Shown: one piece after another, positions 3 to 64,000 of the stretch | How the letters are laid out: each line of letters begins with the position of its first letter | Numbering within the stretch: position 1 is the first letter of the stretch | Assembly (NCBI GenBank): GCA_031375485.1 | Contig: JANMHX010000155.1 | Coordinates: 8,491 to 72,490 of the forward strand | From: Gemmatimonadota bacterium | GTDB taxonomy: Bacteria > Gemmatimonadota > Gemmatimonadetes > Gemmatimonadales > GWC2-71-9 | DNA length: 64,000 nt | Direction: 5' to 3' | Translations under genes and position numbers: made by a program | Notes under the pieces: model-generated | Told to the model about the DNA's origin: nothing | Databases searched by the model: none | The model's input: only the letters and a program-made list of their open reading frames with translations

Positions 3-1748
3 GACCGCTATCCGGTCGAGCAGGGCGATTTTCGTGGTGTCCGTCTGGTGCCATTGCTGACCGAGTCGCTGGAGAGCAGCCAGGCCGCGCTCGGCGATCC
101 CCGGCAGCCGCTCCGGTATGTCGCGGCCGGCCTGGCGCTGCTCCTCCTCATCACCATCACCAATCTCGCCAACCTGGCCGTGGCCCGGACAGCCGCCCGG
201 GCCGCCGAGCTCGAGTTGCGCGGTGCGTTAGGCGCCGGCCGCGGCCGGTTGATTCGGTTGGTGGCCATCGAGACCGCGGCCGTGGCCTTGGTGGGCGGGC
301 TCTTGGGATGCGTCCTGGGTGTCGCCGGGATCGCCGAGGTCCGGCGCCGGGCCGGGGGGCTGCTCCCGCGGGCCGAGGAGATCGGACTCGATCCGGTTTT
401 GATCTGGGCCACGCTCGGACTGGTGATGACGGTCGTGATGCTGGTGGGCGTGGTTCCCACCATGTTGGCGCTCCGGTCGGTCGGTCGGGTAACCGGGTCC
501 TCTCATCGGGTGGCAGGGAACCGGGCGCACCACCGGCTTCGGCGCGGGCTGGTCGTGGCGCAGGTCGCGTTCGCGGTCATCATGGCGATCGGTGCGAGTT
601 TGGTGACGGAGAGTCTGGTCCGAAGCCTCGAAGTTCCGCTCGGATTCGAGCCGGACGGCCTCGCGACCGCCCTGGTCGAACCGAACGTCGAGGATTACCG
701 TGATCCCTCCCGCCTCGTTGCCCTGTATCGACAACTCGCGCTCGAGTTCAAATCGATTCCGGGGGTTACCGCGACCGGGCTGGTGAGCCACGCGCCGCTC
801 GTGTCCGGCTCGATGTCGACGCGAGTCTTGGTCGGGGAAGAAGACGCCGCCGATGCCGCCGCCGGACGCCCGGCCATGTTCGTCGCCACCGACCCCGACT
901 ACTTCAAAACGGCCGGGATTCCGGTTCGGAAGGGCCGCCTGTTCGAGGACGCCGATCTGGCCGCCGAAAATGGCAGCCTCATCGTCAATGAAGGATTCGC
1001 CGCTCGGCTCTGGCCGGGGCGCGATCCGATCGGACAACGGATCGGGATCTTCCGCTCGGTCATGGGCCGGGCCGACTTCGGTCAGCCGATCGAGGGCCGG
1101 ATCGTGGGTGTCGTCGGTGATGTGCGCCATTGGGGCGCCGAGATTGCTTCGCCTGATATGGTGTATGTGCCCTTTACCTGGAACCCATGGCGGCACACCC
1201 AACTCGTGGTCCGAGGATCGCCGGCCGCGATGGGCCGCCTCGTTCCGACGCTGGAGACGTCGATGCGCCGCCTCCACCCCGAGTTGGCGACGCGCGGGGC
1301 CGCCGGACCGTCGATCCAAACGTTCGACCGCGCCCGGCAGGCCTCGGAGCTTCCCCGACGATTGCTGACGTGGCTGATCGTCGGGTTCGGTGCCGCCGCG
1401 CTGGCGCTGGTTTCCGTCGGCCTCTATGCCGTGATCTCATATCTGGTCGGTCAGCGAAGCCGAGAACTCGGAGTGCGCCTCGCGCTTGGGGCGACGAGGC
1501 AGCGGGTGGCCCTGATGGTGCTGGGCGATGTTGCCGGGCTAGTCGGGATTGGGCTCGTGGTGGGCCTCGCGGTGGCGTTTCTTGGCGCCGAGGCCACTCG
1601 GGGTCTCGTGTTCGGCATCGGCCCGCGCGATCCGATGGCCTACGGGGTTGGAGTGCTGATCCTCACGATCGTTGCGCTCGCGGCGTCCGTGGGCCCGGCC
1701 CGGCGCGCGGCGGATACCGACCTTACCGCGGTGCTCCGCGGCGATTGA
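3..1748 (+). CDS. ADOP-family (MacB/FtsX duplicated) ABC-type permease, 5'-truncated by window edge
   Basis: Frame open from base 3. Has NLANLAVAR, ELRGALGAGRGRL, GLVVAQVA, GLYAVISYLVGQRSRELGVRLALGA and the C-terminal LTAVLRGD typical of ADOPs. Confidence 0.9.
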   Translation, partial: DRYPVEQGDFRGVRLVPLLTESLESSQAALGDPRQPLRYVAAGLALLLLITITNLANLAVARTAARAAELELRGALGAGRGRLIRLVAIETAAVALVGGLLGCVLGVAGIAEVRRRAGGLLPRAEEIGLDPVLIWATLGLVMTVVMLVGVVPTMLALRSVGRVTGSSHRVAGNRAHHRLRRGLVVAQVAFAVIMAIGASLVTESLVRSLEVPLGFEPDGLATALVEPNVEDYRDPSRLVALYRQLALEFKSIPGVTATGLVSHAPLVSGSMSTRVLVGEEDAADAAAGRPAMFVATDPDYFKTAGIPVRKGRLFEDADLAAENGSLIVNEGFAARLWPGRDPIGQRIGIFRSVMGRADFGQPIEGRIVGVVGDVRHWGAEIASPDMVYVPFTWNPWRHTQLVVRGSPAAMGRLVPTLETSMRRLHPELATRGAAGPSIQTFDRARQASELPRRLLTWLIVGFGAAALALVSVGLYAVISYLVGQRSRELGVRLALGATRQRVALMVLGDVAGLVGIGLVVGLAVAFLGAEATRGLVFGIGPRDPMAYGVGVLILTIVALAASVGPARRAADTDLTAVLRGD

Positions 1749-1779
1749 CGGCTCGGGCCGTCGAGCCATCGCCGCCACC

Positions 1780-1808
1780 GGCGACCGTGGGATGAACCCA
1801 CGGCCGCC
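1780..1808. terminator. GC-rich hairpin between convergent genes (terminator or REP-like)
   Basis: ggcgaccgtggg-atgaa-cccacggccgcc, 12-bp stem with one mismatch. Confidence 0.5.
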
Positions 1809-1822
1809 GCTTCGGGATGATT

Positions 1823-5071: not shown

Positions 5072-5163
5072 CGATATTTCCAGAGTGAGGTGAAGGACTC
5101 GGATCTGACCTGAAGCAATAGCTTGGCCCGATCCGTAGGGCAATGAGCCCATTGGGAGTCGAA

Positions 5164-6015: not shown

Positions 6016-8454
6016 CTATTCCTGACGGAGCACCACGACGGGGTTCACGAGGGCGGCGCGGCGGGCCGGAATCCAAATGGCCAATACCGCCACCGCGCCG
6101 AGCACGGCGGGGACGATCGCAAACACCACGGGGTCGAGTCCGGTGCCGTAGAGGATGCCACTCATCAGGCGGCCGCCACCCGCCGCGCCGGCCAGGCCGA
6201 TCCCGATCCCGATTCCGACCAGCCGGAGCCCGTCTCGCATCAGCAACCGGACGATCGACGCCCCGCCCGCACCGATGGCCAGGCGGATCCCGATCTCGCG
6301 ATGCCGCTGCGCCACCGAGTGCGACATGACGCCATAGACCCCGAGCGAGGCGAGCACCAACCCGAGCACCCCGAAAACGCCGAGCACGGTCGCGGCCAGG
6401 CGGGCCGGCAAGAACGCCATTCCCATCCGGTTCGTCATGGTTTGCACGTTCGCCAGGGGCAGATTCGGATCGAGCGTGGCTACTTCCTGCCGGAGAGCCG
6501 GCACCACCAACGTCGGATCGCCGGTGGTCCGGATCAGAATGTTCATGCCGGTCCGCCAGTGCTGGGCTTGGGCCAGATACATGTACGCCGTCGGATCTTC
6601 GCCTAACGATCGGTACTTCCCAGTGGTCGTCAGGCCGATCACGGTGTGGTCGTTGTCGCCGACCCGGACCGTCCGCCCGATCGGATCCTGATTGGGCCAG
6701 AACCGATCCGCGAACCGTTGGTTGATCACGATGGAACGGGCCGCGAGGGAATCGTCCTGCTCGGTAAACCCGCGGCCCCCGACGAGCGGGGTGCCCATGG
6801 CCTCAAAGAACCCCGGGGTGACGATCGCGACGTTGATCGACATGCTTTCGTTCGGACTTGGGGTGTAGCCGGGAATCGTCACGCCCCAATCGCTGCCGCT
6901 CAGTGAGAGGGGCAGCGCGTCAGCCAGGCCCACCGCCGTCACCGTCGGCAGCGCCCTGAGCCGCTCCCGGAGCTGGCGGTAGAACTGTTCTGTGCGGGCC
7001 CGTGAATACCCCTGCATCCCGGGATCGACATCGGCCGCGACCAGATGCTCGCTGGCGAATCCCTTGTCGATCGTCGTCGCGGCCTGGAGGTTTCTGAGGA
7101 ACAGCCCCGCCGAGATCAGGAGGACGATCGACAGTCCCATCTGGGCCACGACGAGACCCCGGCTCATCCGCGACCGCGAGCCGCCGGCCGGCGCCTCGCC
7201 CTTCAGCGTTGGGATCAAATCGGGGCGGGTGGCTTGGAGAGCCGGAGCCAGCCCGAACAAGATCCCGGTTACCAGGGACACGGCGAGCGTGAAGACCAGC
7301 ACGGTCGGACTGATCCGGAGGTCCGGCGCCAGATCGATCGGCGCGGAAATCCCGCCACTCACCCGGTTGGCGATCCCAATGGCCCACCAGGCCACGATCA
7401 GGCCCGCCGCCCCGGCAATGGCCGCCAGCACCAGGCTTTCGGTCAGCAGTTGGCGGATCAACACCGAGCGTTGCGCTCCGATACTCAGCCGGACCGCCAT
7501 CTCCCTCGACCGATCCCGGGCCCGGGCCAGCATCAGGTTCGCCACGTTCACACAGGCAATCAGGAGCAACATGATCACGACGGCCATGATGACGGCGCTG
7601 AGCCCGACCTGGGCGCTCTTGAACATCGGATGAATGCCGGCCTCGGACTGGAGCACCAGGGTGATCCCGCTGGCTTTGTAGTCGTCCGGGTAGATCCGGC
7701 GGAGTTCCTCGATCAGTCGCCCCATCTGCAGGCGGGCTTCCTCAATCGTGACCTTCGGTTTGAGTCTGGCGATCAATTGGAGACTGTTGGTCCCTCGGTT
7801 TTCCCATCGGGAGGCCCCCGGCTCCAAGTGGTCGAGTTGGGTCAACGGGGCCCAGAGGACCGGACTCGCCAGGGGGAGTCCGCCCCGGAATCCCTCGGGT
7901 GTCACCCCGATCACGGAGTAACTCTCACCGTTCAGCACGATGGTGGTGCCGACGACATTCGGGTCGGCGCCAAACTGTTTCTTCCAGCCGGCATGGCTCA
8001 GGATGACCACGGGATGGGCTCGCCGGCCGCTGTCCTCGGCAGGAACGAAGGTCCGGCCCATCTCGGCCTTGACCCCCAGCAGCGAAAAAAAGTTGGCGGA
8101 AGCCACCTGGCCCATGATCCGTTGGGCTTGGCCCGCGGCCGAGAGATTCATCGGCATGAATCCCCACGCGGTCACATCGGTGAAGGTGTCCTTGCTCCGG
8201 TCTCTCACATCCTGGAAATGGGGGACCGAGTTCGAGCCCAGCGACTTCCCCGGCCAGCTCCGATAGAGCTGGACCAACCGATCGGCCGATTGGACGCCCG
8301 GCAGCGGCCGGAGTAACAAGGCGTCGAGCGCGGAGAACACCGCGGTGTTCAAGCCGATGCCGAGGGCGAGCGTGGTGATGACGACGAAGGTGAAGGCGGG
8401 GTTTTTCGCGATCATCCGGAACGCGGAGCGAAGATCGTGTCGGAGCGTATGCAT
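6016..8454 (-). CDS. ADOP-family ABC-type permease
   Basis: Start moved to MHTLRHDLRSAFR. Has KNPAFT..LALGIGLNTAVFS, LLIACVNVANL and the end VVVLRQE. Confidence 0.93.
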   Translation of the reverse strand: MHTLRHDLRSAFRMIAKNPAFTFVVITTLALGIGLNTAVFSALDALLLRPLPGVQSADRLVQLYRSWPGKSLGSNSVPHFQDVRDRSKDTFTDVTAWGFMPMNLSAAGQAQRIMGQVASANFFSLLGVKAEMGRTFVPAEDSGRRAHPVVILSHAGWKKQFGADPNVVGTTIVLNGESYSVIGVTPEGFRGGLPLASPVLWAPLTQLDHLEPGASRWENRGTNSLQLIARLKPKVTIEEARLQMGRLIEELRRIYPDDYKASGITLVLQSEAGIHPMFKSAQVGLSAVIMAVVIMLLLIACVNVANLMLARARDRSREMAVRLSIGAQRSVLIRQLLTESLVLAAIAGAAGLIVAWWAIGIANRVSGGISAPIDLAPDLRISPTVLVFTLAVSLVTGILFGLAPALQATRPDLIPTLKGEAPAGGSRSRMSRGLVVAQMGLSIVLLISAGLFLRNLQAATTIDKGFASEHLVAADVDPGMQGYSRARTEQFYRQLRERLRALPTVTAVGLADALPLSLSGSDWGVTIPGYTPSPNESMSINVAIVTPGFFEAMGTPLVGGRGFTEQDDSLAARSIVINQRFADRFWPNQDPIGRTVRVGDNDHTVIGLTTTGKYRSLGEDPTAYMYLAQAQHWRTGMNILIRTTGDPTLVVPALRQEVATLDPNLPLANVQTMTNRMGMAFLPARLAATVLGVFGVLGLVLASLGVYGVMSHSVAQRHREIGIRLAIGAGGASIVRLLMRDGLRLVGIGIGIGLAGAAGGGRLMSGILYGTGLDPVVFAIVPAVLGAVAVLAIWIPARRAALVNPVVVLRQE

Positions 8455-8485
8455 ACCGGGCCCGGGTTGCGAGAAGAACGCCACC

Positions 8486-8533: not shown

Positions 8534-11191
8534 CTACTCGGACCGGATCACCACCAGGGGATCGACTTGGCTGGCGCGCCGCGCGGGAATCCAGGCCGCC
8601 GCGATGCCAACCACGCCCAGGAGGAGGGCGGCGCCGCCGAAGATCCACGGGTCCCACGGACTCATCTCATAGAGCATGGACCGAATCAGCCGCACCAAGC
8701 CCGCCGATGCCAACAGACCCACGACGAGGCCCGCGCCCACCCGCCGCATCCCGTCGCGAAGCACCAGAGCGGAGATTCGCTCCGGCACCGCCCCGACGGC
8801 CAGGCGGACCCCGAACTCGAAGTGCCGTTGCCGGACCGCGAACGCGATCAGCCCATAGAGCCCGACGAGCGCCAGGCCGAGCGACAAGACCGAGAAGAAG
8901 GCGACGATGGCCATGGTGAACCGCTGGCCGGCCGTGGCTTCCTCAAGGGCCGCCTCCGTCGTCCTCGCCGAACGAATCCGAACCCCGGGATCGGCGTCGC
9001 GAATCACCCGGCTCACGGCGCGAATCGGGCTCGCGCCGTTCGAGCGAACCAGCAAGGTCGCGCCGAAGTCCCCCGGCTCGTTCCGATGGTAGATCGTCGG
9101 CGCTCCGGCGAAGTCGGCGCCCCCGGACCGAAGGTTGGCCGCGACGCCGATCACGACCGAGCCCGTCTCCTTGGCGTCTCGGCCGAATCGAACGACTTGA
9201 CCCACGGCTGCGCCCGCGCCGCCAAAAACCCGCCGCGCCGTCGCCTCATCGATAATGACTTCTGATCCGGTGCTGTCGGGACCGAAACTGGTGCCCGCCA
9301 CGAGCCGCTGGCCGACCACGTCGAAATAGTCGGGGCCGATCGCCCGGGTCGGAAAAAATGCCACGGCCGCTTCGGCCGGCCACGGTCGCCCGGCGGGAAG
9401 AAACTCGGCCCGCATCACGCCGAAGTCGAGCGGGCTGTTCTGGGCCGCGGCTACGCCAGTGACGCCAGGCACCCGGCGGACCCGCTCGGCTAGGTCCCGG
9501 ATCATCTGGTCGCGTCGGGCGGCCGTCGGAAATTCCCGTTCCGGCAACGAGACCGACACCTGGGCTAACCCGGCGGCCTCGAACCCGAGGGGAAGGGTGA
9601 CCTCGCGGACGAAACTCTTGACCAACAGGCCGGCCCCGAGCAACAGCACCAGCGTGATGGCGATTTGGCCGACCACCAACGCCGACCGGAGCCGCCCGGC
9701 TCCTCGGCTGTCGAGGGTTCGCCGGGCCCGGCCGACCAAGGCGGTGGCCGCGTCGACTCGGGACACCGCCCACACCGGCGCCAGTCCAAAGCAGAGCGTG
9801 GCCGCGAGCGCAATCGCCGCCGCGATCAGGAAGGTCGTTCCGCTGATCCGGACGTCGTCGATGGTGAGCAGGTCCGGGGGCCGGAACCGCCGCGCCAGCG
9901 CCAACACGGCCCCGGTGACCCCGACCCCGAGCCCCGCGCCGAGCCCGCCCAGCAGCGCCGATTCGGCCAGGAGTTGCCGGATCACCCGGCCCCGACCGGC
10001 GCCTAACGCCGAGCGGACCCCGAACTCTTGGGTCCGGCCCGCCGCCTGGCCGAGCAGCAAGGCCGCCACGTTGGCGCAGGCCACCAACAGGATCAGCCCG
10101 ACCGCACTCAGGAGTAGCGACAGGGTGGCGCGAAGGGACGGATTGACCAAATCGTTGGCGCTGAAGAACACCAGCTGGAACGACCGGAGCAGATTGTCTC
10201 CGGATCCCGGCGCGGCCTTCAGGCGTGCATCGACCAGCCCCGCAACCGTGGCCGGCTCCGCCCCCGGGGCCAGGGTGACCAGGACCCGGCTTTGGTCCTG
10301 GGTTGGATCGGTGAGGCTCTGGCGGAGGGGGAGCCAGAACTCGGCCCGGGGGTCGCGGTCGATCGAGGTCAGATCGAAGCCAGGCTGGAACACCCCGACG
10401 ATCGTGGCGGCCTGGCCGTCGATCGGAACCGTCCGGCCGATGACGTCGGCCCGGCGGCTGAATCGCCGGGTCCACGTGGCGTACGAAAGAACCGTCACCA
10501 ACGGCGACCCGGCCAGGCTGTCCTCGGGGAGAAACGTCCGGCCCTCGGCGAGTCTGGCTCCGAGAGCCTCCGGCATCCCGACCGTGACGAGACGGGTGGC
10601 CACGATTTCCGGGGTGCCGTCGATATCGATCATGGATTGGGCGACTTGGTGGGCGTCGACCCTGACGATCCCGGGCGTCGCGGCCATCGCGATCCGGCTG
10701 GCCCGGTTCGGGTTGATCCGCATGCTGTGTTCGATCGTCCCGCTGGTGAACCACGGCACCGCCAGCCGGTCGGCGGTGGGATAGGGCAGGGGGTGGAGGG
10801 CCAACCGGTCAAACAGGCTGACCATGGCGGTGGTGAGCCCGATGCCGAGGCCCAACACCGTTACCGCGACGGCCGCAAAGGACCAGCTCCGGCGAAGTTC
10901 CCGGACCGCAAACCGAAGGTCGCGGCCGAGGTCCACCAGCCAGTCGATCCGCTCGGCACGACGCCCGGCGGATTGGTCGGCCGCGATCAGCTCGGCCCGA
11001 GCGGCGGTGACGTCGCCGAAGCGCCGGGCTGCTTCGGCGCGGGCCTCAGGTTCCGCCAGGCCCCGCGCCATCAGTTCCTGAATCCGCATGTTCATGTGGA
11101 ACTCGACCTCGGCCTCGACCTCGCCGAGGATGGCCTCGGGGCGACGGGAACCGAACCGAAACAGCCGCCGGAACTCGGGGAGTCGGAACAT
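8534..11191 (-). CDS. ADOP-family permease with N-terminal 'permease prefix' domain
   Basis: Start moved to MFRLPEFRR, 2 nt after the padR stop. Prefix EVEAEVEFHMNMRIQELMARGLAEPEARAEAARRFGD, then DLRFAVR, LLVACANVAALL and the end LVVIRSE. Confidence 0.92.
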   Translation of the reverse strand: MFRLPEFRRLFRFGSRRPEAILGEVEAEVEFHMNMRIQELMARGLAEPEARAEAARRFGDVTAARAELIAADQSAGRRAERIDWLVDLGRDLRFAVRELRRSWSFAAVAVTVLGLGIGLTTAMVSLFDRLALHPLPYPTADRLAVPWFTSGTIEHSMRINPNRASRIAMAATPGIVRVDAHQVAQSMIDIDGTPEIVATRLVTVGMPEALGARLAEGRTFLPEDSLAGSPLVTVLSYATWTRRFSRRADVIGRTVPIDGQAATIVGVFQPGFDLTSIDRDPRAEFWLPLRQSLTDPTQDQSRVLVTLAPGAEPATVAGLVDARLKAAPGSGDNLLRSFQLVFFSANDLVNPSLRATLSLLLSAVGLILLVACANVAALLLGQAAGRTQEFGVRSALGAGRGRVIRQLLAESALLGGLGAGLGVGVTGAVLALARRFRPPDLLTIDDVRISGTTFLIAAAIALAATLCFGLAPVWAVSRVDAATALVGRARRTLDSRGAGRLRSALVVGQIAITLVLLLGAGLLVKSFVREVTLPLGFEAAGLAQVSVSLPEREFPTAARRDQMIRDLAERVRRVPGVTGVAAAQNSPLDFGVMRAEFLPAGRPWPAEAAVAFFPTRAIGPDYFDVVGQRLVAGTSFGPDSTGSEVIIDEATARRVFGGAGAAVGQVVRFGRDAKETGSVVIGVAANLRSGGADFAGAPTIYHRNEPGDFGATLLVRSNGASPIRAVSRVIRDADPGVRIRSARTTEAALEEATAGQRFTMAIVAFFSVLSLGLALVGLYGLIAFAVRQRHFEFGVRLAVGAVPERISALVLRDGMRRVGAGLVVGLLASAGLVRLIRSMLYEMSPWDPWIFGGAALLLGVVGIAAAWIPARRASQVDPLVVIRSE

Positions 11192-11193
11192 GA

Positions 11194-21785: not shown

Positions 21786-21791
21786 GTCGGC

Positions 21792-39549: not shown

Positions 39550-39612
39550 TCCGTGCGCCTCATTAGGTCGATGCAGGCTCAGCTCTGTCCCCACAATTTG
39601 GACGCAAACCGC

Positions 39613-47294: not shown

Positions 47295-47677
47295 CCGGTG
47301 CGATCCATGGTGGAGGCCCCTTCGGCCATGACCAGGATCCACCCGGCGATCAGGGCGACCCCGCCGACCGGCGTGACGGCACCGAGCCACCGATGGCCGG
47401 TCAGGACCAGCGCGTAGAGGCTTCCGGAAAAGACCAGAATCCCCAATCCAAACGCTCGAGCCGCCCAGTGGAGACGGGGCGCCGGGTGCCGCTCGATCCA
47501 CGCCGCGAGGCCGAGCAGGGCCACGGCGTGGAACATCTGGTACCGGGCGGCGGTTTCGAAGATGGCGAGATCGGCGGGGGCGAGACGGGCCGCCAGCAGG
47601 TGGGCCCCGAAGGCGCCGAGCCCGACGCCTAACGCGCCGGCCAGCCCGGCCATCGCCAGGACCGTTCGGGCGTTCAC
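47291..47677 (-). CDS. DUF423/YgdD small membrane protein
   Basis: LGAFGAH, YQMFHA, FSGSLY and TPVGG. Confidence 0.9.
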   Translation of the reverse strand: MNARTVLAMAGLAGALGVGLGAFGAHLLAARLAPADLAIFETAARYQMFHAVALLGLAAWIERHPAPRLHWAARAFGLGILVFSGSLYALVLTGHRWLGAVTPVGGVALIAGWILVMAEGASTMDRTG

Positions 47678-52608: not shown

Positions 52609-54733
52609 AGGTGACCGTCCCGAGCGAGGTCGTCGCCTGAAACCGCTGGGGCCCCAGGGCCGGGCCCAGGCGGATCGTCGTGGACGCGAGCCCGTAGGAG
52701 TCAGTTCCCGAGAGCGGTCCCACCGAGCCCCCGTCGAGGGCCGCCCAGCTGACGGTTTCATCACCCACCGGGTTGTTGAAGGCATCCAGGATCAGCACTT
52801 GAAGCGACAGGGCCGGGGTCGAGCCGGCCGGGGCCGACTGGTTGTCGCCGCTCGCGATCACGATCTGAGAGGCCGGACCAGCCTCGATGGTAAACGAGAA
52901 GTTCGCCACCAGTCCCGAGGCTTGGTGGCGGGCCTGAATCCGCGAAGTCCCGCTCTTGGTGCCCGCCGTGTAGACCACCCCCGCCGCACCGAATGAGTCG
53001 GTCGTTGTGTTCGTTGCCGACAGGCTCCCGCCACCTTCCAGGATTTGCCAGGTCAACGGGGCGGCCGGAATGCCGGACCCAAAATCAGTCAGCTGAGCCA
53101 CGGCGGGGTCGAAGAGCGGCAAGGTTACGTTGCCAAACTGGTCGCCGCCGCTCAGGGGCACGAGTCCGGTGGCAGCGGGATTCGACCGGAGGTTGAACGT
53201 AGTGTTCAGCGCGCCGCTCGCGGCCCGGATCGCGACGTCCGAGGTGTTGAGCGGTGCATAGTCGACCGAGGCCAGCCCATCTTCGCCCGACGTCGTGAAC
53301 GGGGCACTGAGGGTTCCGGTGCCCGTGGTGAACACCCACGTCACGTTGACCCCCGGCACCGGGTTGCCGAAAGCGTCGCTCAGGCGAACCCGGGGCGTCG
53401 CGGGGAATCCGGGCAAACCGGCGTCGCCGCTGAAGATCTGCAACGAGGTGGCCGGGCCGGCGGTGCCGAACGATACGAACCGGACCTGAACCGGCGCGGT
53501 CGGGCCCGGGATCGTGGCGCGAACCAGGTTCACCCCTTCCCGGGTACCCGTCGTGGCCGTCATCGAGGTAAGACCCTGCGCATCGCTGTTGGAACTATTG
53601 GCGCCGACTACCCCGCCGCCGGCAACGACCGACCAGGTGACCTTTTCTCCGCTGACCGGAAATCCGGCGGTGTCGGTGACCTGCACTACCATGAGTTGGG
53701 ACGGCGCGGTGTTGACCCGGGCGAACTGGGCCCCGCCCGACCGATAGAGCAACCGGGCAGCCGGTCCCGCGGTGGCCAGCGCCGTCAGGGTGAGCGGCGG
53801 CAGACCGAGCACGGTCGCTTCGTAGCTGTTGGCGCCGAGTGAGGCGCCTAACGACATCGGGCTCGCGGCCACCCCTTGGGCGTTGGTTTGGACCACCGAG
53901 TCGCGGATCGAACCACCGCCGGCCGTGGTCCGAAACCGGACCGCCACGCCCGCCACCGGGAGCGAATCGGCCGCCTTGACCAACACCGCGAACGCCGTCG
54001 GGAGGACGGCCGAGGGCCGGCCGGTCTGGTTGCCGCCGGCAATGACGCTCACGGCGACCGGTTTGGCGACGAAGGTGAGATTGGCCGAGTCGGCCAACCC
54101 GGTCGGGAGAGTGGCAATGACCCGAATGGTGACCCGGCGGAGCGGCGCCACGAGGGCCCCGGCTTGGTTGATCTGGACCAACGGGTCGGTTGTCGACCAG
54201 GTGACCGGAAAGCTGGTGACCGGGGCGCCCTGGGCGTCGAGTGCGGTGAGACGCATCGCGAGCGGATCGCCGAGGACCAGAGTCGAGTCGCGCGGACCGA
54301 CTCGGAGGGTCCGAATGTTGGCGCCGGGCCCCACGTAGCGGAGCACCAGGTTCGGGGTGGCTGCCGGTCCGGAGCCCAAGGCCACCACCAGCACGGTGTC
54401 GGACCCGGAGTAGTAGAGTTGGGTGTCGCGGAGGAGGTCGACGGTGACGCCGAGTCGTTCCGACCGGGCTTTGAGGGTGACCCGAAGCCGGAGGTTCAAC
54501 TGCGAATTGTCGATCGGAAAGGCCACCGTGGTGTCGAGCACCCGCTCGGCCGGCGCCCGCCCGATGCGGATTCTGACCTGGTTGATCGAGGGCACCGGGG
54601 CCGCCGCCTGAATCGTCGGCGCCAACCGAAGCTCGGCGGTGAATCGTTCCGGCTGGCCGGGCGAGTCGCTGCAGGCGGCCACGAGGCCGCCGAGGATCAC
54701 GGCGCGGCCGGCGTTCCGGACCCGGTTAGGCAT
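52589..54733 (-). CDS. Surface lipoprotein with tandem bacterial Ig-like (Big_1/invasin-type) repeats
   Basis: Lipobox VAAC. Repeated units GGNQTG..VxDxxGxPVxGxxVTW..T(D/N)xxG. Confidence 0.8.
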   Translation of the reverse strand: MPNRVRNAGRAVILGGLVAACSDSPGQPERFTAELRLAPTIQAAAPVPSINQVRIRIGRAPAERVLDTTVAFPIDNSQLNLRLRVTLKARSERLGVTVDLLRDTQLYYSGSDTVLVVALGSGPAATPNLVLRYVGPGANIRTLRVGPRDSTLVLGDPLAMRLTALDAQGAPVTSFPVTWSTTDPLVQINQAGALVAPLRRVTIRVIATLPTGLADSANLTFVAKPVAVSVIAGGNQTGRPSAVLPTAFAVLVKAADSLPVAGVAVRFRTTAGGGSIRDSVVQTNAQGVAASPMSLGASLGANSYEATVLGLPPLTLTALATAGPAARLLYRSGGAQFARVNTAPSQLMVVQVTDTAGFPVSGEKVTWSVVAGGGVVGANSSNSDAQGLTSMTATTGTREGVNLVRATIPGPTAPVQVRFVSFGTAGPATSLQIFSGDAGLPGFPATPRVRLSDAFGNPVPGVNVTWVFTTGTGTLSAPFTTSGEDGLASVDYAPLNTSDVAIRAASGALNTTFNLRSNPAATGLVPLSGGDQFGNVTLPLFDPAVAQLTDFGSGIPAAPLTWQILEGGGSLSATNTTTDSFGAAGVVYTAGTKSGTSRIQARHQASGLVANFSFTIEAGPASQIVIASGDNQSAPAGSTPALSLQVLILDAFNNPVGDETVSWAALDGGSVGPLSGTDSYGLASTTIRLGPALGPQRFQATTSLGTVTFIVTAR

Positions 54734-56222
54734 CGATCAGGCCCTGCACCGCCCGGGCCAGTTGGTCCGGGGAAAACGGTTTGGTGAGATGGGCCCGGGG
54801 CGCGAGTCCGTCGGGGCGGGCCGGGGCGCCGGAAATGAACAGGATCTTGAGGTGGGGCCAGTCGGCAATCAGTTCCTCGGCCAAGCCGGTGCCGTGCTGG
54901 CCCGGCAGGATCATGTCGGTGACCAATACCGAGATTTCATTGCCTCGCTCCGCGGCGACGGTGGTGGCCTCCGCCGCACTGGCCGCGGCAACGACCCGGT
55001 ATCCGAACAATTCGAGCCCCCGCCGAGCCACTTCGAGGACGCCGGGGTCGTCGTCGACCAACAGGACGGTTTCCGATCCCTGGCGAGGCAACGCCGGCTC
55101 CGGTTCGGTCCCCTCGGCGACGGTCATCGCTTCCGGCAGGGCCTGGAAGTGGATCTCCACCGAGGTGCCGCTGTTGGGCTGGCTCCGGACCCAGAGCAGG
55201 CCGCCGGTTTCCCGGACGATCTGCTGGACGGTGGTGAGGCCCAAGCCCCGCGCGCCCGGTGCCTCCTTGGTGGTGAAGAACGGCTGAAACAGTTGGGCCT
55301 TGGTTTCGGCATCCATCCCGACCCCGGTGTCGGTGACGGTCATGACCACGTACTCGCCTAACCGGCCGTCGAGGCCACCGTCGTCAAGCCGCTCACCGGG
55401 CCCGACCGAGTGCGAGCCGATCGTCAGGGTGCCGCCGCTCGGCATCGCGTCCCGGGCGTTCACCACCAAGTTGATCAGAATGTGCTGCAGCTCGGCGCGG
55501 TCGGCATAGACCGGTGGCAGACCCTCCGAGAGGTCGAGGGCCAGGATCAGGTCGGGTCCGAGGAGGGCCTCGAGCAGCCCGTGCCAGTGGAGGATCACGG
55601 CGTTCAGATCGACCGGCCCGCGGGTGGTCGGCCGTCGCCGAGAAAAGTCGAGCAGCTCCTGGAACAGGGAACTCGCCCGCCGGGCGGCCCGTTCGATCGT
55701 GAGGAGGTCCGACGGGCGGTCGGCCAAACTGGCGGAGGTGGTGCCCAACAGGTTGGAGAATCCGGCAATGACCTGGACGGCGTCGTTCAGTTCGTGGGAA
55801 ATCCCATCGGCCAGCTGGGTGACGGCATCGAGCCGCTGCGAGTGCCAGAGCCGGTGCTCGAGGCGTTTCCGATGGCGGAGATCTTGGGCCGACACGACGT
55901 AGAGCGTTCCCGCGGCCTGCTTGACCGGGATGACGGACAGATCGATCGGGACCGTCCCGCCGCTCGCGGTGTGGCAGGTTGCCTCTCCCCGGAAGGGTTG
56001 GTCCTGCCGGAGGGCGTTCCGGAGCCGTTCGACCACCAGCGGTTCGTCGAGGATCGTGACGAGCTGATCGATGCCCTTCCCATCGAGGTCCGAGAGCGGG
56101 ACCCCGACCAGATTGGCAAAGGCCTGATTGGCGAAGCGAACCTGGTCTCGGTCAATAACGAGAAGCGGTTCCGTCGCGTGCTCGGCGGCCAGCTGGGAGG
56201 GAGACTCCACCTCGGCGCTCAT
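54726..56222 (-). CDS. Cytoplasmic PAS hybrid histidine kinase/receiver (CckA-like)
   Basis: PAS domain, H-box SHELND, NLVVNARDAM, DTGVGM, PFFTTK; receiver LLVDDD..TDMILP..KPF. Confidence 0.9.
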   Translation of the reverse strand: MSAEVESPSQLAAEHATEPLLVIDRDQVRFANQAFANLVGVPLSDLDGKGIDQLVTILDEPLVVERLRNALRQDQPFRGEATCHTASGGTVPIDLSVIPVKQAAGTLYVVSAQDLRHRKRLEHRLWHSQRLDAVTQLADGISHELNDAVQVIAGFSNLLGTTSASLADRPSDLLTIERAARRASSLFQELLDFSRRRPTTRGPVDLNAVILHWHGLLEALLGPDLILALDLSEGLPPVYADRAELQHILINLVVNARDAMPSGGTLTIGSHSVGPGERLDDGGLDGRLGEYVVMTVTDTGVGMDAETKAQLFQPFFTTKEAPGARGLGLTTVQQIVRETGGLLWVRSQPNSGTSVEIHFQALPEAMTVAEGTEPEPALPRQGSETVLLVDDDPGVLEVARRGLELFGYRVVAAASAAEATTVAAERGNEISVLVTDMILPGQHGTGLAEELIADWPHLKILFISGAPARPDGLAPRAHLTKPFSPDQLARAVQGLIDA

Positions 56223-58344: not shown

Positions 58345-58349
58345 GAAAC

Positions 58350-58383
58350 AGAACGGCCGTCCTCGGGTGAGGACGGCCGTTCT
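58350..58383. terminator. Bidirectional terminator hairpin
   Basis: Perfect 15-bp stem agaacggccgtcctc / gaggacggccgttct between convergent genes. Confidence 0.82.
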
Positions 58384-58403
58384 CCTGCATCCCTCCCGGC
58401 GGA

Positions 58404-59969
58404 TTACTCGCCCGGGCGACCGATCTTGCTGGTCCCGTTCGGGCCGGTCTCCGCGCAGGTGGCGGCCGGTTCCGCGGCAGCCGTCTCGATCTGGTTGAGT
58501 TCGACCCGGCGGTTCTGCGCCATGCCGTCGTCGGTGGTGTTGTCGGCGCTCGGCTTGCACTCGCCGAAGGCCCGAACCGTGGTCCGGCTCTTGTCGATGC
58601 CGCGCTTCACCAACTCGCGCTGGATGAACTCGCCCCGCTTCTGGGACAGCCAGGCATTGTACTTGACGCTGTTCCGCCAGTCGGTGTGCCCGTCAATGTA
58701 GACCCGGATCGTCTGGTCGGCCTTCATGTTCTCCGCCACCTGATCGAGCGACATCCGATCGACGCCGGCGGCCTCGTTGTACTTGTTGGTGCCGAACATG
58801 GCCCGGAGTACGACCGAGAGCCCGCGGACCGTGGCCGAGGCCCGATCCGAGGACCCGGAGCAGGTGGCCGTGATGCCGTAGTCGCCGCTTCGGCTCCAGC
58901 TGTAGGTCCACGCCTGGGCGCTCGGGCTGCCATCGGCGGCTACGGTGCACTCGTCGGCGCGCATGGCCCGGCTGTTCCCGTCAGACCAGTACCCGGTAAT
59001 GGCGTAGGTTGCCGATTCGCCCAGTTTGAGGTTCGACGTCTTCGGGCTGATCTCGATCCGCGACAACCGCGCGGGCGGGGGCGGCGGGGGCGGCGCGGTG
59101 ACCGTGACGGTCGAGGTGTCGGCGTACTTGCCGTTCAGCGTCGTCGCGACGACCCGGTAGGTGCCGGCGGTGTTCGAGCTGAAGACACCGTTCGGACCGA
59201 TCGTGCCGCCCGGCATCACCGCGTAGGTCACTTGGGGCGTGGTGGAGGACCCGTCGCAGAGCCGTCCGGAGACGTTGAAGTTGACCGACTGGCCGGTTTG
59301 CACGCTGGCCGTGTTCGGCGTCAGATCAATCCCTTCGAGCCGCTTGGTGCACTTCGAGTTCGGGAAGATCGAGAGCCCGAGCTGCGCGGCCAAGTGGGTG
59401 TTGCTCGACGGATCGCCGACCGAAGCGACCGGGCCGAGTGCCTGGACCTCGGTGCTGCCGTTGCGGGGGCTCGGCGTGAAATCGAGCGTGCCGTCGCCGC
59501 GGAGGGAGAGCCAGCTGTTGACCTTGTAGCGAAGACCCACCAACCCGCCGACGCCGAAATCGTTGCCGAAGATCGTCTTGACGGTCGTGTTGTTGGACTT
59601 GCCGTAGTGGTTGAGGACCGGGCCGGCGCCGAGCAAGAAGCTGGCCTTGGTGCCTAACGGAGCGTGGAAAAGCCCCCGGAGATGAATCGGCCAGTGCCGG
59701 ATCGGCGAGCTGATCTGCCCGGTGAAATAATTCTTGAGGTCGGTGGCGTTGAATGACGCGTCGGCCTCGAGCGAGAATTTCGGCGAGAGGAAGTACCCGA
59801 GACGGCCGCCCGCGCCGAAACTGTTCTGGCTCTTGTTCGAGGTGCTGAAGCTGCCGTCGTACTTCGTGTACCGACCGAAGCCGCCGATTTCAATCGTGCC
59901 CTTCTCCTGCGCCACCGCCGGGAGGGCGTACAACGCCAAGGCTCCCACCACCAGGAGGCTCTTACGCAT
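58404..59969 (-). CDS. OmpA-family protein: beta-barrel, two Ig-like domains, OmpA C-terminal peptidoglycan-binding domain
   Basis: Signal peptide, amphipathic strands, poly-Pro linker, GHTD..YNAWLSQKR and QNRRVE. Confidence 0.88.
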   Translation of the reverse strand: MRKSLLVVGALALYALPAVAQEKGTIEIGGFGRYTKYDGSFSTSNKSQNSFGAGGRLGYFLSPKFSLEADASFNATDLKNYFTGQISSPIRHWPIHLRGLFHAPLGTKASFLLGAGPVLNHYGKSNNTTVKTIFGNDFGVGGLVGLRYKVNSWLSLRGDGTLDFTPSPRNGSTEVQALGPVASVGDPSSNTHLAAQLGLSIFPNSKCTKRLEGIDLTPNTASVQTGQSVNFNVSGRLCDGSSTTPQVTYAVMPGGTIGPNGVFSSNTAGTYRVVATTLNGKYADTSTVTVTAPPPPPPPARLSRIEISPKTSNLKLGESATYAITGYWSDGNSRAMRADECTVAADGSPSAQAWTYSWSRSGDYGITATCSGSSDRASATVRGLSVVLRAMFGTNKYNEAAGVDRMSLDQVAENMKADQTIRVYIDGHTDWRNSVKYNAWLSQKRGEFIQRELVKRGIDKSRTTVRAFGECKPSADNTTDDGMAQNRRVELNQIETAAAEPAATCAETGPNGTSKIGRPGE

Positions 59970-60091
59970 CTGGAATCACTCCATCAAAGGTTTTCGCCGA
60001 CCGCTGTTATTCGTAAGCAGTTGCAGCGCCACAATATAGAAGGATTTGGCCGACGATGGTAGGCCCGCGCCACCTGGGCTAGCTTATGAGC

Positions 60092-63000
60092 ATGCTCTCA
60101 CTCCGCGCGATGGCCGCCGTCTCGATTGCTTCCTGGGTGGTCGATGCCTCCGCGTCGCTTCGGGTCATCCGGACGACGCCCGATGCCGAAGCCGCCCCAA
60201 CCGCGGTCATCTCGGTCACCTTCGATCGGCCCGTCGTCGGGTCGCTCGACCGGACCGTTGACCCGGCCAGCATCCTCTCGATCGTGCCCGCGGTGCCGGG
60301 CGCCCTCGAGTGGCGGGACCCGGTCACCCTCCGACTCAAACCCGCGGCGCCGCTTTCCCCCGGCGTCAGCTATACCGTGACCGTGAATCAGTCGTTCACG
60401 GCGCTGGACGGTTCCCGGCTGGCCGAGTCGTACCGGTTCGGGTTTCGAGTGGCGGGGCCCAGAGTCCTGACCGGCATGCCGGTGGCCGAAGATCAGTCCC
60501 CCCGATTCGTGACCGCCACGGAGACCTTCCGCCTGGCCGTCAGTTCCTCGGTTGATCTCGCGGCGTTGGCCCGGCTGGTGTACCTCGAACCTGGCCCGGC
60601 GTGCCCGCGGCGGGGCCCGATCCGGTTCACGGTCCTCGATCAACGGGCCATTGCAGACTCGGCACCGTGGCAACTTCGCGAAGCCGGCGGGTGGGACCGG
60701 GATCGGTCGACCGACGGGCTCCGGCGGGTCGTCACGCTCCGGCCGGCGGAGCCGTTGCCGCTGGCCTGCGCGGCCGAGTTGGTGACCCCGACCTTCATCG
60801 ATCCCGCCAACCCCGGCCCGGTCCGCCGCTGGGCCTTCGCCACCTACGGCACCTTCGCGGTCGACACCACGACTTGTGGCGGAGGCGGCCACTGTCCCAC
60901 CGGTCCGATTCAGCTCCGGTTCACCACGCCGGTCCGAGGTGCCGAGGTCCTCCGCCACGTTCGGGTGCTGCCCAAAGTGGCCTTCACGGTGGCCGACTCG
61001 AACGACGTCAGCGAAACCTGGTCGCTGCAGGCCGATCTCAAGCCGAGAACCGGGTATCTGATCGAGGTTGACCCGGTCTTGACCGACGGTTTCGGCCAGC
61101 GGTTGACCGGCAATCCCCGCCGCACCATCGTGACCACGGGCTTTGCGCCAAGTGTGTCCTATCCCACCGGCCGGCTCACGATCGAGCGGAACGGCCCGCG
61201 CACGCTCCCCGTGACGTATGTCAACGTCGACACCATCGAAGTGATCCAAGCGGCGGTGCCGGAATCGCTCGAGGCCAAACTGTTGTCGCGGTCGTGGTAT
61301 GCCTGGAACGACGACTGGACCGCGCTCGAGCCGAAGGCCACCCGTCGGAAGTATCCGGTCACCCCGACCCGGGATCGGCACGGGGTCTACGGGGTGCCGT
61401 TCCCGGCCGGTCTCTACGCGGTCAAGATCGTGAGCCGGGCCCTGCCCAAGCCGAAGCGGGACGACGGCGAGCAAGGTCCCGCCGACTATCAGCCGATTGC
61501 GCTGGTGCAAGTCACCGATTTGGGCATCCACGCCAAGATCGGCCGGGAGGAGGGCGTGGTGTGGGTCGCGGGCGTGAGCGACGGTCGCTCCCGAAGCGGC
61601 GTTGCCATCGCCGTGCGCGACAGCCGGCGCCGGCTGTTGGCCCAGGGTGTCACCGACGCGCAAGGCCTGTTTCGGTTCTCCGGAGTCCGTCGGAAGGGCG
61701 AACCGGCGGGCGGCGCCGAGCCCGATTACGAGGGCCAGGCGTTCGAGGGCTACGTCGAAGCCCGGTCCGGCGGCGACCGGGCGGTGGTGGGGGTGACCCA
61801 ATACGATCCCGACCTGAGCCCGTGGCAGTTCAACGTCTCGGCCGCGTGGGATACCGAACGGTTTCCGATGGCGGCCGCGGTCTTCACGGAGCGGGGCATC
61901 TATCGCCCCGGCGATTCGGTGTTTGCCAAGGCCATCGTCCGAACTGGGGCCCTCGGCTCGCTCAAAGTGCCGGGCCGGACCGATTCGGTCCGGCTGGCGT
62001 TCCAGGACCGCGATGGCGGCGTCCTCCGCGAACGGACCGTGGCGCTCTCGGCGTTCGGGACGGCGTCGCCGGCGTACCGGTTGCCCGCCGACGCGCCGTT
62101 AGGCCGCTATGCGGTCGTCGCGAGTCTCCGTCGGGAGGGTGAATGGAAGGAAGTCGCCCGGGCCGACTACAAAGTGGCGGAGTACCGGGCGCCCGAATTC
62201 CTGGTCGATGTGACGGCCGACACTGCGGCCCGGATCACCGGCGACTCGCTCGCCGCCACCGTCTCGGCGCGGTATCTCTTCGGGGCCCCGATGGCCCGGG
62301 CCAAGGTGACCTGGGCCGTTCGCGAACAACGGATCGAGGCCTGGGATCTCCAGGTGCCGAACACCGACGGCTACTACGTCGCGGAGCGAGGCTGGTGGTG
62401 GGAAGAGTGGAGCGGCCGAAGCGCCACGTCGGTGAGCGAAAGCCGGGCCGATTCGCTCGACGCCGCCGGCCAACTCACGCTGCGGGCCCCGTTGGTGTTG
62501 TCGAATCCGAAACTCCCGGCGTTGGTGAGCGTCGACGCGGTGGTGACCGACGTGAACCGCCAGTCGGTGTTCGGAAGCGCCACGGTCAAGGTCCATCCCA
62601 CCAGTTACTACATCGGGGCCAAGCCCGCCTCGAAAACCTATTTCTGGACCGCCGCCACCCCGGAACAAGTGGAGGTGATCGCGGTCCGTCCCGATGGACG
62701 CCGGGTGGCGTCGGTGCCGGTGCGAGGGTGGCTGATCCGGCGGGAATGGCACCAAGTCCGCCGCGAGAACGACGGGGTGGCCGACCTGGTGGGCGAATGG
62801 GTCCAAGACACCGTCGACCGGTGCTCGGTGCGGACCACGGCCGCGGCGGTCGCGTGCCGGCTGACGCCGAAGGCCGCCGGCAACTACATCGTCGCGTTCG
62901 ATGCCGCCGACGATCGCGGGCGGCCGGTGTCCACCAGCTTCTACCGGTGGGTCATCGGGCCGGGGTGGGTGCCCTGGGCGGACGAATCGCAATTCAAGAT

Positions 63001-64000
63001 GGACGTGGTACCCGACAAGAGCCGGTACGCAGTGGGCGACACGGCCACCGTGTTGTTCGCGGCCCCGTTCACCAACGCGGAGGCCTGGGTCACGGTCGAG
63101 CGCGAAGGGGTGATCGAGCAGCGCCGGTTCACGGTCAAGGACGGAGCCACGACGCTCAAGCTGCCGGTGACCGAAGCCTGGGTGCCTAACGCATTCGTGT
63201 CGATCGTGGTGGCCCGGGGCCGGAGCGCCAAGCCGGGGCCGCTCGACGACCCGGGGCGCCCCACGATCCGGGTCGGCTACGCCGAGGTCCGGGTCACACC
63301 CGACGGCAAGCGGCTGCACGTGAGCCTGGCGGCCGACCGCGCCGAGTACCGGCCCGGCGACCGGGCCACCGTCACGGCCACCGTCACCGAAGGGCCGAAA
63401 GGCGCCCGGAGCGAAGTGACCCTCTGGGCCGTCGACGAAGGGGTGCTCTCGCTCACCGGCTACAAAGTGCCCGATCCGGTCGAGTTGATCTACCGGCCCC
63501 GGGGACTCGGCCTCCGGTTAGGCAGCAACCTCTCGACCGTGGCGCCGCAGGTGCCCCCGGGCGACAAGGGCCGCAATCCGGGTGGCGGAGGCGGCGAGGG
63601 CGCAGCCGACATCCTCCGATCGCGGTTCCGGACCACGGCTTTCTTCCTGGGCTCGGTCGTGACGGACTCCCTGGGCGTCGGTCGCGCGGCCGTGAAGTTG
63701 CCGGACAACCTCACCACCTTCCGGGTCATGGCCGTCGCCGTCACCGCGGGTGACCGGTACGGCAGCGGCCAGTCTTCGATGCTGGTGACGAGGCCGTTGC
63801 TGGCCCGGGCCGCGGTTCCGCGCTTCGTCCGGCCCGGCGACCAACTGACCGCCGGGGTGGTCGTCAACCACCGGATCGGAGGCACTCCAGCGGTCGAGGT
63901 GTCCGCGGTACCGACGGGCATTCGGCTCCTCGGCGAGCACACCAAGTCGGCCACGCTCGAAGCCGGTCGAGGCCGGGAAGTCCGGTTCGACTTCCGGGCC
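60092..64000 (+). CDS. Bacterial alpha-2-macroglobulin (3'-truncated by window edge; absent from ORF track)
   Basis: Spot-translated by eye from ATG 60086/60092: VTFDRPVVG, LVQVTDLG, FTERGIYRPGD (in frame at 61883), EYRAPEF, LWAVDEGVL and LRSRFRTTAFF..KLPDNLTTFRVMAVA. Confidence 0.9.
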   Translation, partial: MLSLRAMAAVSIASWVVDASASLRVIRTTPDAEAAPTAVISVTFDRPVVGSLDRTVDPASILSIVPAVPGALEWRDPVTLRLKPAAPLSPGVSYTVTVNQSFTALDGSRLAESYRFGFRVAGPRVLTGMPVAEDQSPRFVTATETFRLAVSSSVDLAALARLVYLEPGPACPRRGPIRFTVLDQRAIADSAPWQLREAGGWDRDRSTDGLRRVVTLRPAEPLPLACAAELVTPTFIDPANPGPVRRWAFATYGTFAVDTTTCGGGGHCPTGPIQLRFTTPVRGAEVLRHVRVLPKVAFTVADSNDVSETWSLQADLKPRTGYLIEVDPVLTDGFGQRLTGNPRRTIVTTGFAPSVSYPTGRLTIERNGPRTLPVTYVNVDTIEVIQAAVPESLEAKLLSRSWYAWNDDWTALEPKATRRKYPVTPTRDRHGVYGVPFPAGLYAVKIVSRALPKPKRDDGEQGPADYQPIALVQVTDLGIHAKIGREEGVVWVAGVSDGRSRSGVAIAVRDSRRRLLAQGVTDAQGLFRFSGVRRKGEPAGGAEPDYEGQAFEGYVEARSGGDRAVVGVTQYDPDLSPWQFNVSAAWDTERFPMAAAVFTERGIYRPGDSVFAKAIVRTGALGSLKVPGRTDSVRLAFQDRDGGVLRERTVALSAFGTASPAYRLPADAPLGRYAVVASLRREGEWKEVARADYKVAEYRAPEFLVDVTADTAARITGDSLAATVSARYLFGAPMARAKVTWAVREQRIEAWDLQVPNTDGYYVAERGWWWEEWSGRSATSVSESRADSLDAAGQLTLRAPLVLSNPKLPALVSVDAVVTDVNRQSVFGSATVKVHPTSYYIGAKPASKTYFWTAATPEQVEVIAVRPDGRRVASVPVRGWLIRREWHQVRRENDGVADLVGEWVQDTVDRCSVRTTAAAVACRLTPKAAGNYIVAFDAADDRGRPVSTSFYRWVIGPGWVPWADESQFKMDVVPDKSRYAVGDTATVLFAAPFTNAEAWVTVEREGVIEQRRFTVKDGATTLKLPVTEAWVPNAFVSIVVARGRSAKPGPLDDPGRPTIRVGYAEVRVTPDGKRLHVSLAADRAEYRPGDRATVTATVTEGPKGARSEVTLWAVDEGVLSLTGYKVPDPVELIYRPRGLGLRLGSNLSTVAPQVPPGDKGRNPGGGGGEGAADILRSRFRTTAFFLGSVVTDSLGVGRAAVKLPDNLTTFRVMAVAVTAGDRYGSGQSSMLVTRPLLARAAVPRFVRPGDQLTAGVVVNHRIGGTPAVEVSAVPTGIRLLGEHTKSATLEAGRGREVRFDFRA

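Follow-up and report, generated by a model that had tools for sequence, protein, structure and literature searches.

A hyper-abundant octamer in Gemmatimonadales genomes matches the core box of integron attC sites in sequence

The 64-kb window examined in this work (the whole stretch of 64,000 nucleotides, G000:C55:8491-72490) was taken from the assembly of a soil-dwelling Gemmatimonadota bacterium of the order Gemmatimonadales (G000; 5.36 Mb, 391 contigs, 66.5% GC), and the element under study was a short non-palindromic DNA word, GTTAGG with its extensions, which is scattered over both strands. A preliminary description made from the letters alone had listed 19 copies of GTTAGG/CCTAAC in the window, and our recount gave the same number at the same places. 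In 100 dinucleotide shuffles of the window the count averaged 9.3 and never exceeded 17, so that none reached 19. The 17 copies reported as extended to GTTAGGC were likewise recovered, compared with 2.9 expected (maximum 8), and a single one of the 20 TTAGG occurrences lacked the 5' G, at position 39563, as had been noticed. The full octamer, CGTTAGGC, was present at 13 of the 19 sites. The caveat attached to the first count, that base composition would predict a similar number, held for a zero-order model only, whereas Markov models of order 1-3 and dinucleotide shuffles predicted far fewer.

According to our own gene calls (a simple codon-model caller, which gave 3935 genes and 84% coding sequence in G000), 15 of the window sites were read in sense as x-Leu-Gly, 2 were antisense and read Pro-Asn, and 2 lay outside called genes; the predominance of x-Leu-Gly in the first tally was retained, but its exact split of 16 and 3 was not. 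The two copies outside any called gene were full octamers at 226..233 (+) and 21790..21797 (-). Among the full octamers in sense, TCG-TTA-GGC (Ser-Leu-Gly) was found at 6601..6608 (-) in gene 6019-8484(-), at 35829..35836 (+) in M20 paralog 2, and at 53846..53853 (-), which was conserved in the related genome G009; GCG-TTA-GGC (Ala-Leu-Gly) at 10001..10008 (-) in gene 8537-11335(-), 47627..47634 (-) and 50218..50225 (-), the last of which was conserved in G001; ACG-TTA-GGC (Thr-Leu-Gly) at 24857..24864 (-); and CCG-TTA-GGC (Pro-Leu-Gly) at 32195..32202 (-), 59652..59659 (-) and 62097..62104 (+). The remaining full octamer, 63184..63191 (-), was antisense to gene 60086-64357(+) as CCT-AAC (Pro-Asn). 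The one-off variant CGTTAGGT was located at 23885..23892 (-) as ACG-TTA-GGT (Thr-Leu-Gly) and at 28582..28589 (+) as CCG-TTA-GGT (Pro-Leu-Gly), and the one-off variant TGTTAGGC at 36483..36490 (+) as GTG-TTA-GGC (Val-Leu-Gly), all in sense. Three sites carried GGTTAGGC with the 7-mer core, namely 54724..54731 (+), antisense to gene 52592-54733(-) as CCT-AAC (Pro-Asn) and conserved in G009 and G001, and 55356..55363 (-) and 63516..63523 (+), both in sense as CGG-TTA-GGC (Arg-Leu-Gly). The context G-TTA-GG held 15 of the 22 TTA codons in the genes overlapping the window. The internal control pointed out earlier was reproduced, as the same Val-Leu-Gly is spelled GTC-CTC-GGC in M20 paralog 1 (~34866) and GTG-TTA-GGC in paralog 2 (~36482). 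The CGTTAGGC/GTTAGG sites of the window were retained in species with 77-90% identity, and where a site was not retained, another Leu codon preceded GG at the homologous position. The site at 55356 was kept in G001 and G025 and had other Leu codons in G009, G002 and G010, and the GTTAGG of the site at 59652 was kept in G009, G021, G025, G012 and G007, with CTC, CTG, ATC or ATG before GG in six other species.

The signal proved stronger than the preliminary description of a 6/7-mer had stated, and its real unit was the 8-mer. In G000, CGTTAGGC occurred 968 times compared with 48-51 expected from order 2-3 Markov models (z ~130), which made it the top-scoring 8-mer, and in the ranking of all words its z far exceeded that of every unrelated 8-mer. 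GTTAGGC occurred 1306 times against ~150 expected from the same models. Expected counts were taken from Markov models of order 1-3 rather than of maximal order, under which 1184 GTTAGGC were expected and the signal was nearly masked because the sub-words are also enriched. Conservation of the flanks stopped at +/-1 nt, and the word was therefore not part of a longer repeat element. In sampled sequence from G007, G021 and G339, too, CGTTAGGC ranked first among 8-mers. Among its one-mismatch neighbours in G000, the end variants TGTTAGGC (9.6x) and CGTTAGGT (6.2x) were enriched, the internal ones showed observed/expected ratios of 0.3-0.9 with CGTTATGC (1.96) as the sole standout, and no neighbour was specifically depleted in the way that very short patch (VSP) repair predicts. 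The density of the word on the contigs of G000 followed GC (rho 0.55) and not codon typicality (rho -0.01). The large contigs C59 (50.8 kb), C107, C250 and C351 held 0-2 copies and may be foreign or mis-binned; C59, with a lower GC of 63.6%, held 0 against 9.2 expected.

The proposal that a DNA-level signal is carried genome-wide through strict context and codon choice passed an amino-acid-preserving codon null. Classified by reading frame, 554 of the 968 copies lay in sense frame 1 as xCG-TTA-GGC (11.9 expected, 47x), 31 in sense frame 2 as nnC-GTT-AGG-C (3.0 expected, 10x), 61 in antisense as nGC-CTA-ACG (3.1 expected, 20x) and 96 in antisense as nnG-CCT-AAC-G (13.8 expected, 7x), and 226 were uncalled or straddled gene ends. 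In the non-coding DNA of G000, 156 copies were counted against ~15 expected (10x). Stop codons were also used, with CGT-TAG-GC at 43 versus 3.7 and GCC-TAA-CG at 47 versus 4.8, which were the commonest contexts of TAG and TAA, respectively. TTA was not spread evenly over flanking contexts, since its share of Leu codons was 38% in the context NCG_GGC and 1.3% overall; the remaining Leu codons in that context were reduced proportionally, and TTG was not singled out. Codon-phase GC showed that the host genes of antisense copies were genuinely antisense, by which wrong-strand gene calls were ruled out as the origin of these copies. Of the 223 uncalled copies that could be tested, ~138 were not surrounded by any open frame of coding character. 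Occupancy in G339 was highest for the antisense Pro-Asn class (47%, compared with 23.5% for [SPTA]-Leu-Gly), and the sense-strand preference in G000 was accordingly ascribed to coding opportunity. These results showed that CGTTAGGC is a strand-symmetric DNA word placed wherever coding permits and not a codon effect, and that the use of TTA, a rare codon, follows as a by-product, TTA being the cheapest spelling of the word.

No replication polarity was found in the strand counts of G000, G007 and G339. The G-rich strand carried 52% of the copies in G000, where orientation tracked the strand of the host gene and not GC skew; a contiguous 400 kb of G007 held 46+/42- copies, and the first 400 kb of the 5.31-Mb contig of G339 held 121+/129-. 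Close copies avoided each other, a pattern of diminishing returns: in an opportunity-site permutation of G000, gaps below 200 bp numbered 6 compared with 34.8 +/- 5.6 (minimum 19 in 300 permutations), gaps below 500 bp numbered 46 compared with 84.5 +/- 8.7, and only 3 gaps were below 100 bp. A rule of one copy per gene was rejected, as the copies per gene were Poisson-distributed. On G339:C1 (L104-L123), word-bearing short tandem repeats were observed at ~80512-80575 and 18235-18274; a 14-bp repeat had GTTAGGC in its two outermost copies and GTCAGGC in those between them, and a 16-bp repeat contained three copies of CGTTAGGC.

The word was lost slowly between species. In 362 kb aligned between G000 and G021 (87.6% identity), CGTTAGGC was conserved at 54/70 and 54/71 sites (~77%), compared with 38% of all 8-mers and 13-42% of the synonymous analogues CGTTGGGC, CGCTGGGC, CGCTTGGC and CGCTCGGC. 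At high density it also alters protein sequences. In the proteins of G339, [SPTA]LG was counted 456 times versus 294 for the mirror tripeptide, and PN[VADEG] 122 times versus 43; both ratios were ~1 in G000. The slow loss, the bending of proteins and the short-range avoidance, together with the lack of polarity and of a depleted neighbour, pointed to selection, or a drive that resembles it, as the force maintaining the word, with the complete 8-mer being recognised, and spoke against mutational inflow or a repair bias at a single position.

Enrichment was lineage-specific, graded and patchy within Gemmatimonadales. The 22 genomes of the window's genus had 32 to 334 copies of CGTTAGGC per Mb, and the 78 other genera of its family were word-poor with the exception of G034. 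The highest counts came from the sister family f2, in G277 (3896 copies in 4.0 Mb), G332 (4141) and G339 (4469), and the density of G277 and G332 was ~1 per kb; further word-rich genomes of f2 were G210 (1100), G236 and G327 (~830 each), G173 (709), G333 (465) and G182 (452). G328, a congener of G277 and G332, had 66 copies only. The 103 genomes sampled from other orders and classes of the phylum contained 0-70 copies, and none was seen above the reversed-word control. No claim was based on G223, a genome flagged as unpublished. The word was also met in a cultured strain, Gemmatirosa kalamazoonensis KBS708, in which the stretch of plasmid 1 at 100-150 kb (NZ_CP007129.1) held 36 copies in 50 kb versus 1.6 expected and CGTTAGGC was the top 8-mer. 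Heptamer microsatellites were among the over-represented words as well: TCGGCACT/CCGAGTGC words in the non-coding DNA of G000, (CTGCTTT)n in G328 (L084-L103), whose arrays form inverted pairs separated by 60-150 bp, and (GGGACTC)n in G339 (L104-L123).

A connection with integrons emerged from the word-poor genera, where the few copies of CGTTAGGC formed clustered arrays on one strand, repeating every 500-650 bp. In seven arrays, each copy ended an imperfect palindrome of ~90-140 nt (GCCTAAC-AAGCGC...GCGC..C-GTTAGGC), which has the R''-L''...L'-R' layout of integron attC sites, with cassettes between them. The word terminated 37 of 37 aligned attC sites, these having been picked by searching for the word, and the leading C of the array sites is partly guaranteed for the same reason, because the arrays were found by word search. 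A C before GTT was also present in 7 of 8 attC sites found by a covariance model in G000, which ended in CGTTAG-like boxes. The consensus of the R' core box is GTTRRRY, and GTTAGGC fits it. As a sequence, CGTTAGGC is the same as the R' core (crossover) box, the final 8 nt, of attC sites in this order's integrons. In sister genera nearly all copies ended attC sites in cassette arrays. In G000, however, attC-like inverted pairs accounted for only 16 of 968 copies, and the other 952 were not attC; the dispersed copies lay inside conserved genes on nearly all contigs and not in arrays. This identity, the octamer unit and the coding opportunity behind the sense bias had been overlooked in the preliminary description.

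G000 was found to contain several small arrays and two intI genes that score above the TIGR02249 cut-off. The two integron integrase genes lie outside the window, at G000:C297:1-2718 and C88:798-8691; on C297 an attC array follows intI downstream in the same orientation, and the codon usage of this intI is atypical (0.10 versus a genome median of 0.27 log-likelihood per codon). A co-oriented layout was likewise seen in G339:C2, with at least 16 attC matches beside intI. In a soil relative, L046 (G012:C240), a Beta-lactamase2-family (PF13354) gene at 2957-3940(-) directly adjoins an integron integrase gene. No conserved gene was found beside intI, the neighbours differing at each of the 10 loci compared. 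Counts of attC per genome (model R1) were lower bounds, in that the best 150 candidates per genome were scored; in G277 and G332 there were 0 matches among these 150, though both have IntI. IntI was found in 115 of 201 genomes of the order and in 18 of the 25 word-rich genomes (at least 100 copies per Mb). In family f2 the rate was 53/87, and 8 of the 8 densest scorable genomes were IntI-positive. G328 (3 IntI copies), G008, G028, G029 and many array-bearing genera were IntI-positive yet lacked the dispersed word. Conversely, G021 had neither IntI nor an attC match and showed full word density and equal conservation; G182, G034 and G140 were enriched without IntI, and G017 had IntI fragments only. 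IntI was rejected as a co-varying factor, being weakly associated within the genus, present in word-poor G328 and absent from the enriched G182, G034 and G140.

In the dispersed copies the G|TT core and the C at +6 were fixed, and downstream C was avoided at +7, R stood at +7 in 73-74%, and RGC occurred in 9.9% compared with 6.4% of controls (p = 0.0025). A preprint (bioRxiv 10.1101/2022.09.11.507474) shows that genomic G|WT sites in double-stranded form receive cassettes through IntI, and that the hotspots among them have CRGM at +6 to +9. The downstream preference matched this attC/attG consensus only weakly. For the cassette search 20 regions were taken, of which 16 were scanned with the attC model. 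A synteny break between G012 and G000:C133 was dismissed as a cassette candidate, since the empty site lacked the word and no attC abutted the junction. In that comparison, L129 (G012:C30) 3685-6627 versus G000:C133 1476-1507, G012 has a 2.9-kb insertion with one attC between a gene end and a tRNA/microsatellite, and neither junction is abutted by an attC. CCGAGTG-like repeats (7-bp period, imperfect), an example of the TCGGCACT/CCGAGTGC words, stand beside the tRNA at G000:C133 ~1440-1476. Another pair, G000:C242:1480-7585 and L126 (G009:C374) 4822-6258, represents the same chromosomal cassette locus, with conserved flanks and contents of 5.3 kb versus 0.6 kb.

Candidate machinery was sought among genes for DNA uptake, recombination and methylation. 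ComEC, DprA and a PilQ-like secretin were found in G000. RecC was not found in this assembly, which is 95% complete, and one PDDEXK_1 helicase-nuclease-like open reading frame (ORF) of 1188 aa was present. The single-molecule real-time (SMRT) methylome of G. kalamazoonensis KBS708 lists RGATCY, ATGCAC and CCAGN7TCA only (PMC3974934). None of these three N6-methyladenine (m6A) motifs resembles CGTTAGGC, though plasmid 1 of this strain carries it. SMRT sequencing detects 5-methylcytosine (m5C) poorly, and the KBS708 methylome is therefore compatible with m5C at the word.

Based on these results, we infer that CGTTAGGC is read by a sequence-specific protein. The explanation that we favour, still tentatively, is an uptake-sequence-like molecular drive acting on uptake or on retention. 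DNA fragments carrying the word would be preferentially taken up or retained and would then recombine into the chromosome, by which the word would spread and resist loss, as do the uptake signal sequences (USS) of Pasteurellaceae and the DNA uptake sequences (DUS) of Neisseriaceae. Since the word matches the attC core, the specificity of the reader may have been adjusted to the DNA of integron cassettes or have arisen from it. In Vibrio cholerae, transformation-derived single-stranded DNA is reported to feed cassette recruitment (PMC12614218), and this result makes a link between uptake and integrons biologically plausible. A bolder version, which we regard as distinctly unlikely, is that recognition in some Gemmatimonadales became tuned to the attC core, so that cassettes would be imported preferentially and the word would be stamped thousands of times over the genome as a by-product, the crossover site doubling as a self/uptake tag. 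Under this version the integrase could, in addition, use the copies for in-phase recombination, the G|TT crossover falling on the codon boundary of xCG|TTA-GGC, the commonest frame.

Several observations weigh against an uptake-type drive. The link between CGTTAGGC and attC is one of sequence identity alone, and no cassette was found inside a dispersed copy at the 16 loci with a solitary attC in relatives. The word is on or off within one genus (G277 and G332 versus G328), and no replacement word, or dialect, was found in G328, where the top words were a tandem heptamer microsatellite and were not dispersed; USS and DUS families are less sharply on or off than this. Inverted terminator pairs of the DUS style were absent from G000 and G339, and the close pairs of G339 were mostly short direct tandem duplications. 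ComEC and a PilQ-like gene were present in all five f2 genomes tested, including word-poor G328, and ComEC, DprA and PilQ-like matches were obtained in many control bacteria; uptake genes are therefore not discriminating and were rejected as the co-varying factor. ComP_DUS (PF16732) matched 0 of 5 genomes, the control genomes being silent too, and no description of competence or of uptake sequences in Gemmatimonadota was found in the literature.

Among the alternatives, the integron integrase itself could be the reader, with the R-box sites bound by IntI as attG landing sites, as decoys titrating IntI, or as in-phase recombination points. We consider this unlikely, in spite of several points in its favour: CGTTAGGC equals the R' box of attC in integrons of the order, G000 has two intI genes and arrays, all 8 densest scorable f2 genomes are IntI-positive compared with 53/87 in the family, and, set beside the G|WT core and the CRGM of attG hotspots, the dispersed copies avoid C at +7 and mildly prefer RGC. 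IntI was neither sufficient (G328, G028, G029, G008 and the array genera) nor needed (G021, G182, G034 and G140), and its frequency in word-rich genomes (18/25) has to be set against 115/201 in the order as a whole. Moreover, the chemistry of IntI should conserve the number of TTAGGC half-sites and would offer no obvious way to create copies, and the 16 scanned loci gave no cassette within the dispersed word. Some other non-polar genome-maintenance or nucleoid-associated protein might bind CGTTAGGC instead, with its even scatter under selection and the integron match coincidental or secondary. Strand symmetry, the occurrence of the word on chromosome and megaplasmid, the repulsion of close copies, their conservation, and a patchiness that fits a gainable and losable factor all agree with such a protein, but with ~1,000-4,000 sites the selection on any single one would, unless a drive were at work, be exceedingly slight, a chance match to the exact R' 7-mer of the family would arise in ~2 of 10,000 cases by our own arithmetic, and no candidate protein was found, the genes adjacent to intI differing in every genome. 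This explanation is accordingly judged quite improbable.

Of the candidates named in the preliminary description, the uptake sequence and the protein-binding site stay in play; the explanations that follow fared less well. A sequence-specific repair or mutation bias, either an m5C methyltransferase with a Vsr-like nuclease of the HIP1 type or a deamination sink from CCCAAC to CCTAAC, would agree with the patchy, gene-like distribution and with the enrichment of TGTTAGGC and CGTTAGGT, which are C-to-T transitions at the word ends, and m5C is compatible with the KBS708 methylome. Yet no neighbour was specifically depleted while the end T-variants were enriched, Leu codons other than TTA were depleted proportionally and not TTG alone, a bias at one position would be unable to lift the word 20-50-fold over all 24 neighbours, and inflow would leave the three-fold slower loss, the amino-acid bending and the short-range repulsion unaccounted for. 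The mutational sink is contradicted by the missing TTG loss and depleted neighbour and by the slow loss of copies, a methylase link gained no support from a non-palindromic word unlike the only motifs listed for KBS708 (m5C excepted), and we hold this class of explanation to be highly unlikely. A Chi-like or KOPS-like signal whose polarity follows replication has in its favour one long PDDEXK_1 ORF in G000, and 8-mer length and ~1 copy per 5.5 kb resemble Escherichia coli Chi; it is contradicted by the absence of skew in G000, G007 and G339 and by an orientation that follows gene strand, RecC was not found in G000, and this reading appears extremely unlikely. An effect exerted in translation, by the TTA codon or by the Leu-Gly context, deserves hardly any credence: 57% of the copies (554/968) do lie in xCG-TTA-GGC, but enrichment extends to antisense copies, stop codons and non-coding DNA, and the antisense class leads occupancy in G339.

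Few recognition words of such abundance are known (USS, DUS, Chi and HIP1 among them), and all of these have been informative on how genomes mark or move their own DNA. For Gemmatimonadota, CGTTAGGC would be the first. Its density rises to 1 copy per kb, it overrides codon usage and even protein sequence, and it switches on and off between close relatives. If its reader is an uptake or retention factor, natural transformation would be tied to the capture of cassettes; should the integrase be the reader, integrons would act on the scale of the whole chromosome. The word is carried by G. kalamazoonensis, a cultured type strain for which SMRT data have been published (GEO GSE55390), which makes the question directly testable. 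A full-text literature search, outside of which subscription-only papers fell, returned no description of CGTTAGGC, of its connection with the integron recombination core, of any over-represented consensus of that core, or of uptake sequences from the phylum, and a literal-string search for the word gave only primer and oligonucleotide matches.

Compared with known systems, CGTTAGGC resembles E. coli Chi (GCTGGTGG) as an octamer of similar density, and KOPS/AIMS in octamer size, but these are skewed to the leading strand whereas CGTTAGGC is strand-symmetric. HIP1 of cyanobacteria (GCGATCGC) is likewise a hyper-abundant 8-mer of coding and non-coding DNA, patchy among lineages and of unsettled mechanism; unlike CGTTAGGC, which is non-palindromic and has no match in the KBS708 methylome motifs, HIP1 is palindromic and linked to a methyltransferase. 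With the integron attC/attI core CGTTAGGC shares the G|TT crossover core and, by sequence, the last 8 nt of attC, in an order rich in integrons (115/201). It differs from attC in that 952 of 968 copies lack the R''/L''/L' partner and lie within conserved genes with a weak IntI correlation, and from attG in that no cassette insertion was seen at dispersed copies. From USS and DUS it differs in its lack of inverted terminator pairs, its patchy, on/off occurrence within one genus without visible dialects, its coincidence with an integron core, and the fact that neither a receptor (the control being silent) nor a description of uptake bias in the phylum was found. In other respects USS and DUS are the closest counterparts, being short, non-palindromic, over-represented words with both orientations equal, which occupy the cheapest coding frames and the spacers, bend peptides at high density, are conserved at orthologous sites and are specific to lineages. 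The density of USS and DUS is ~1 per kb, as for CGTTAGGC in G277 and G332. It is because the anatomy of the word fits DNA uptake sequences better than the other known classes that an uptake-type drive is favoured here.

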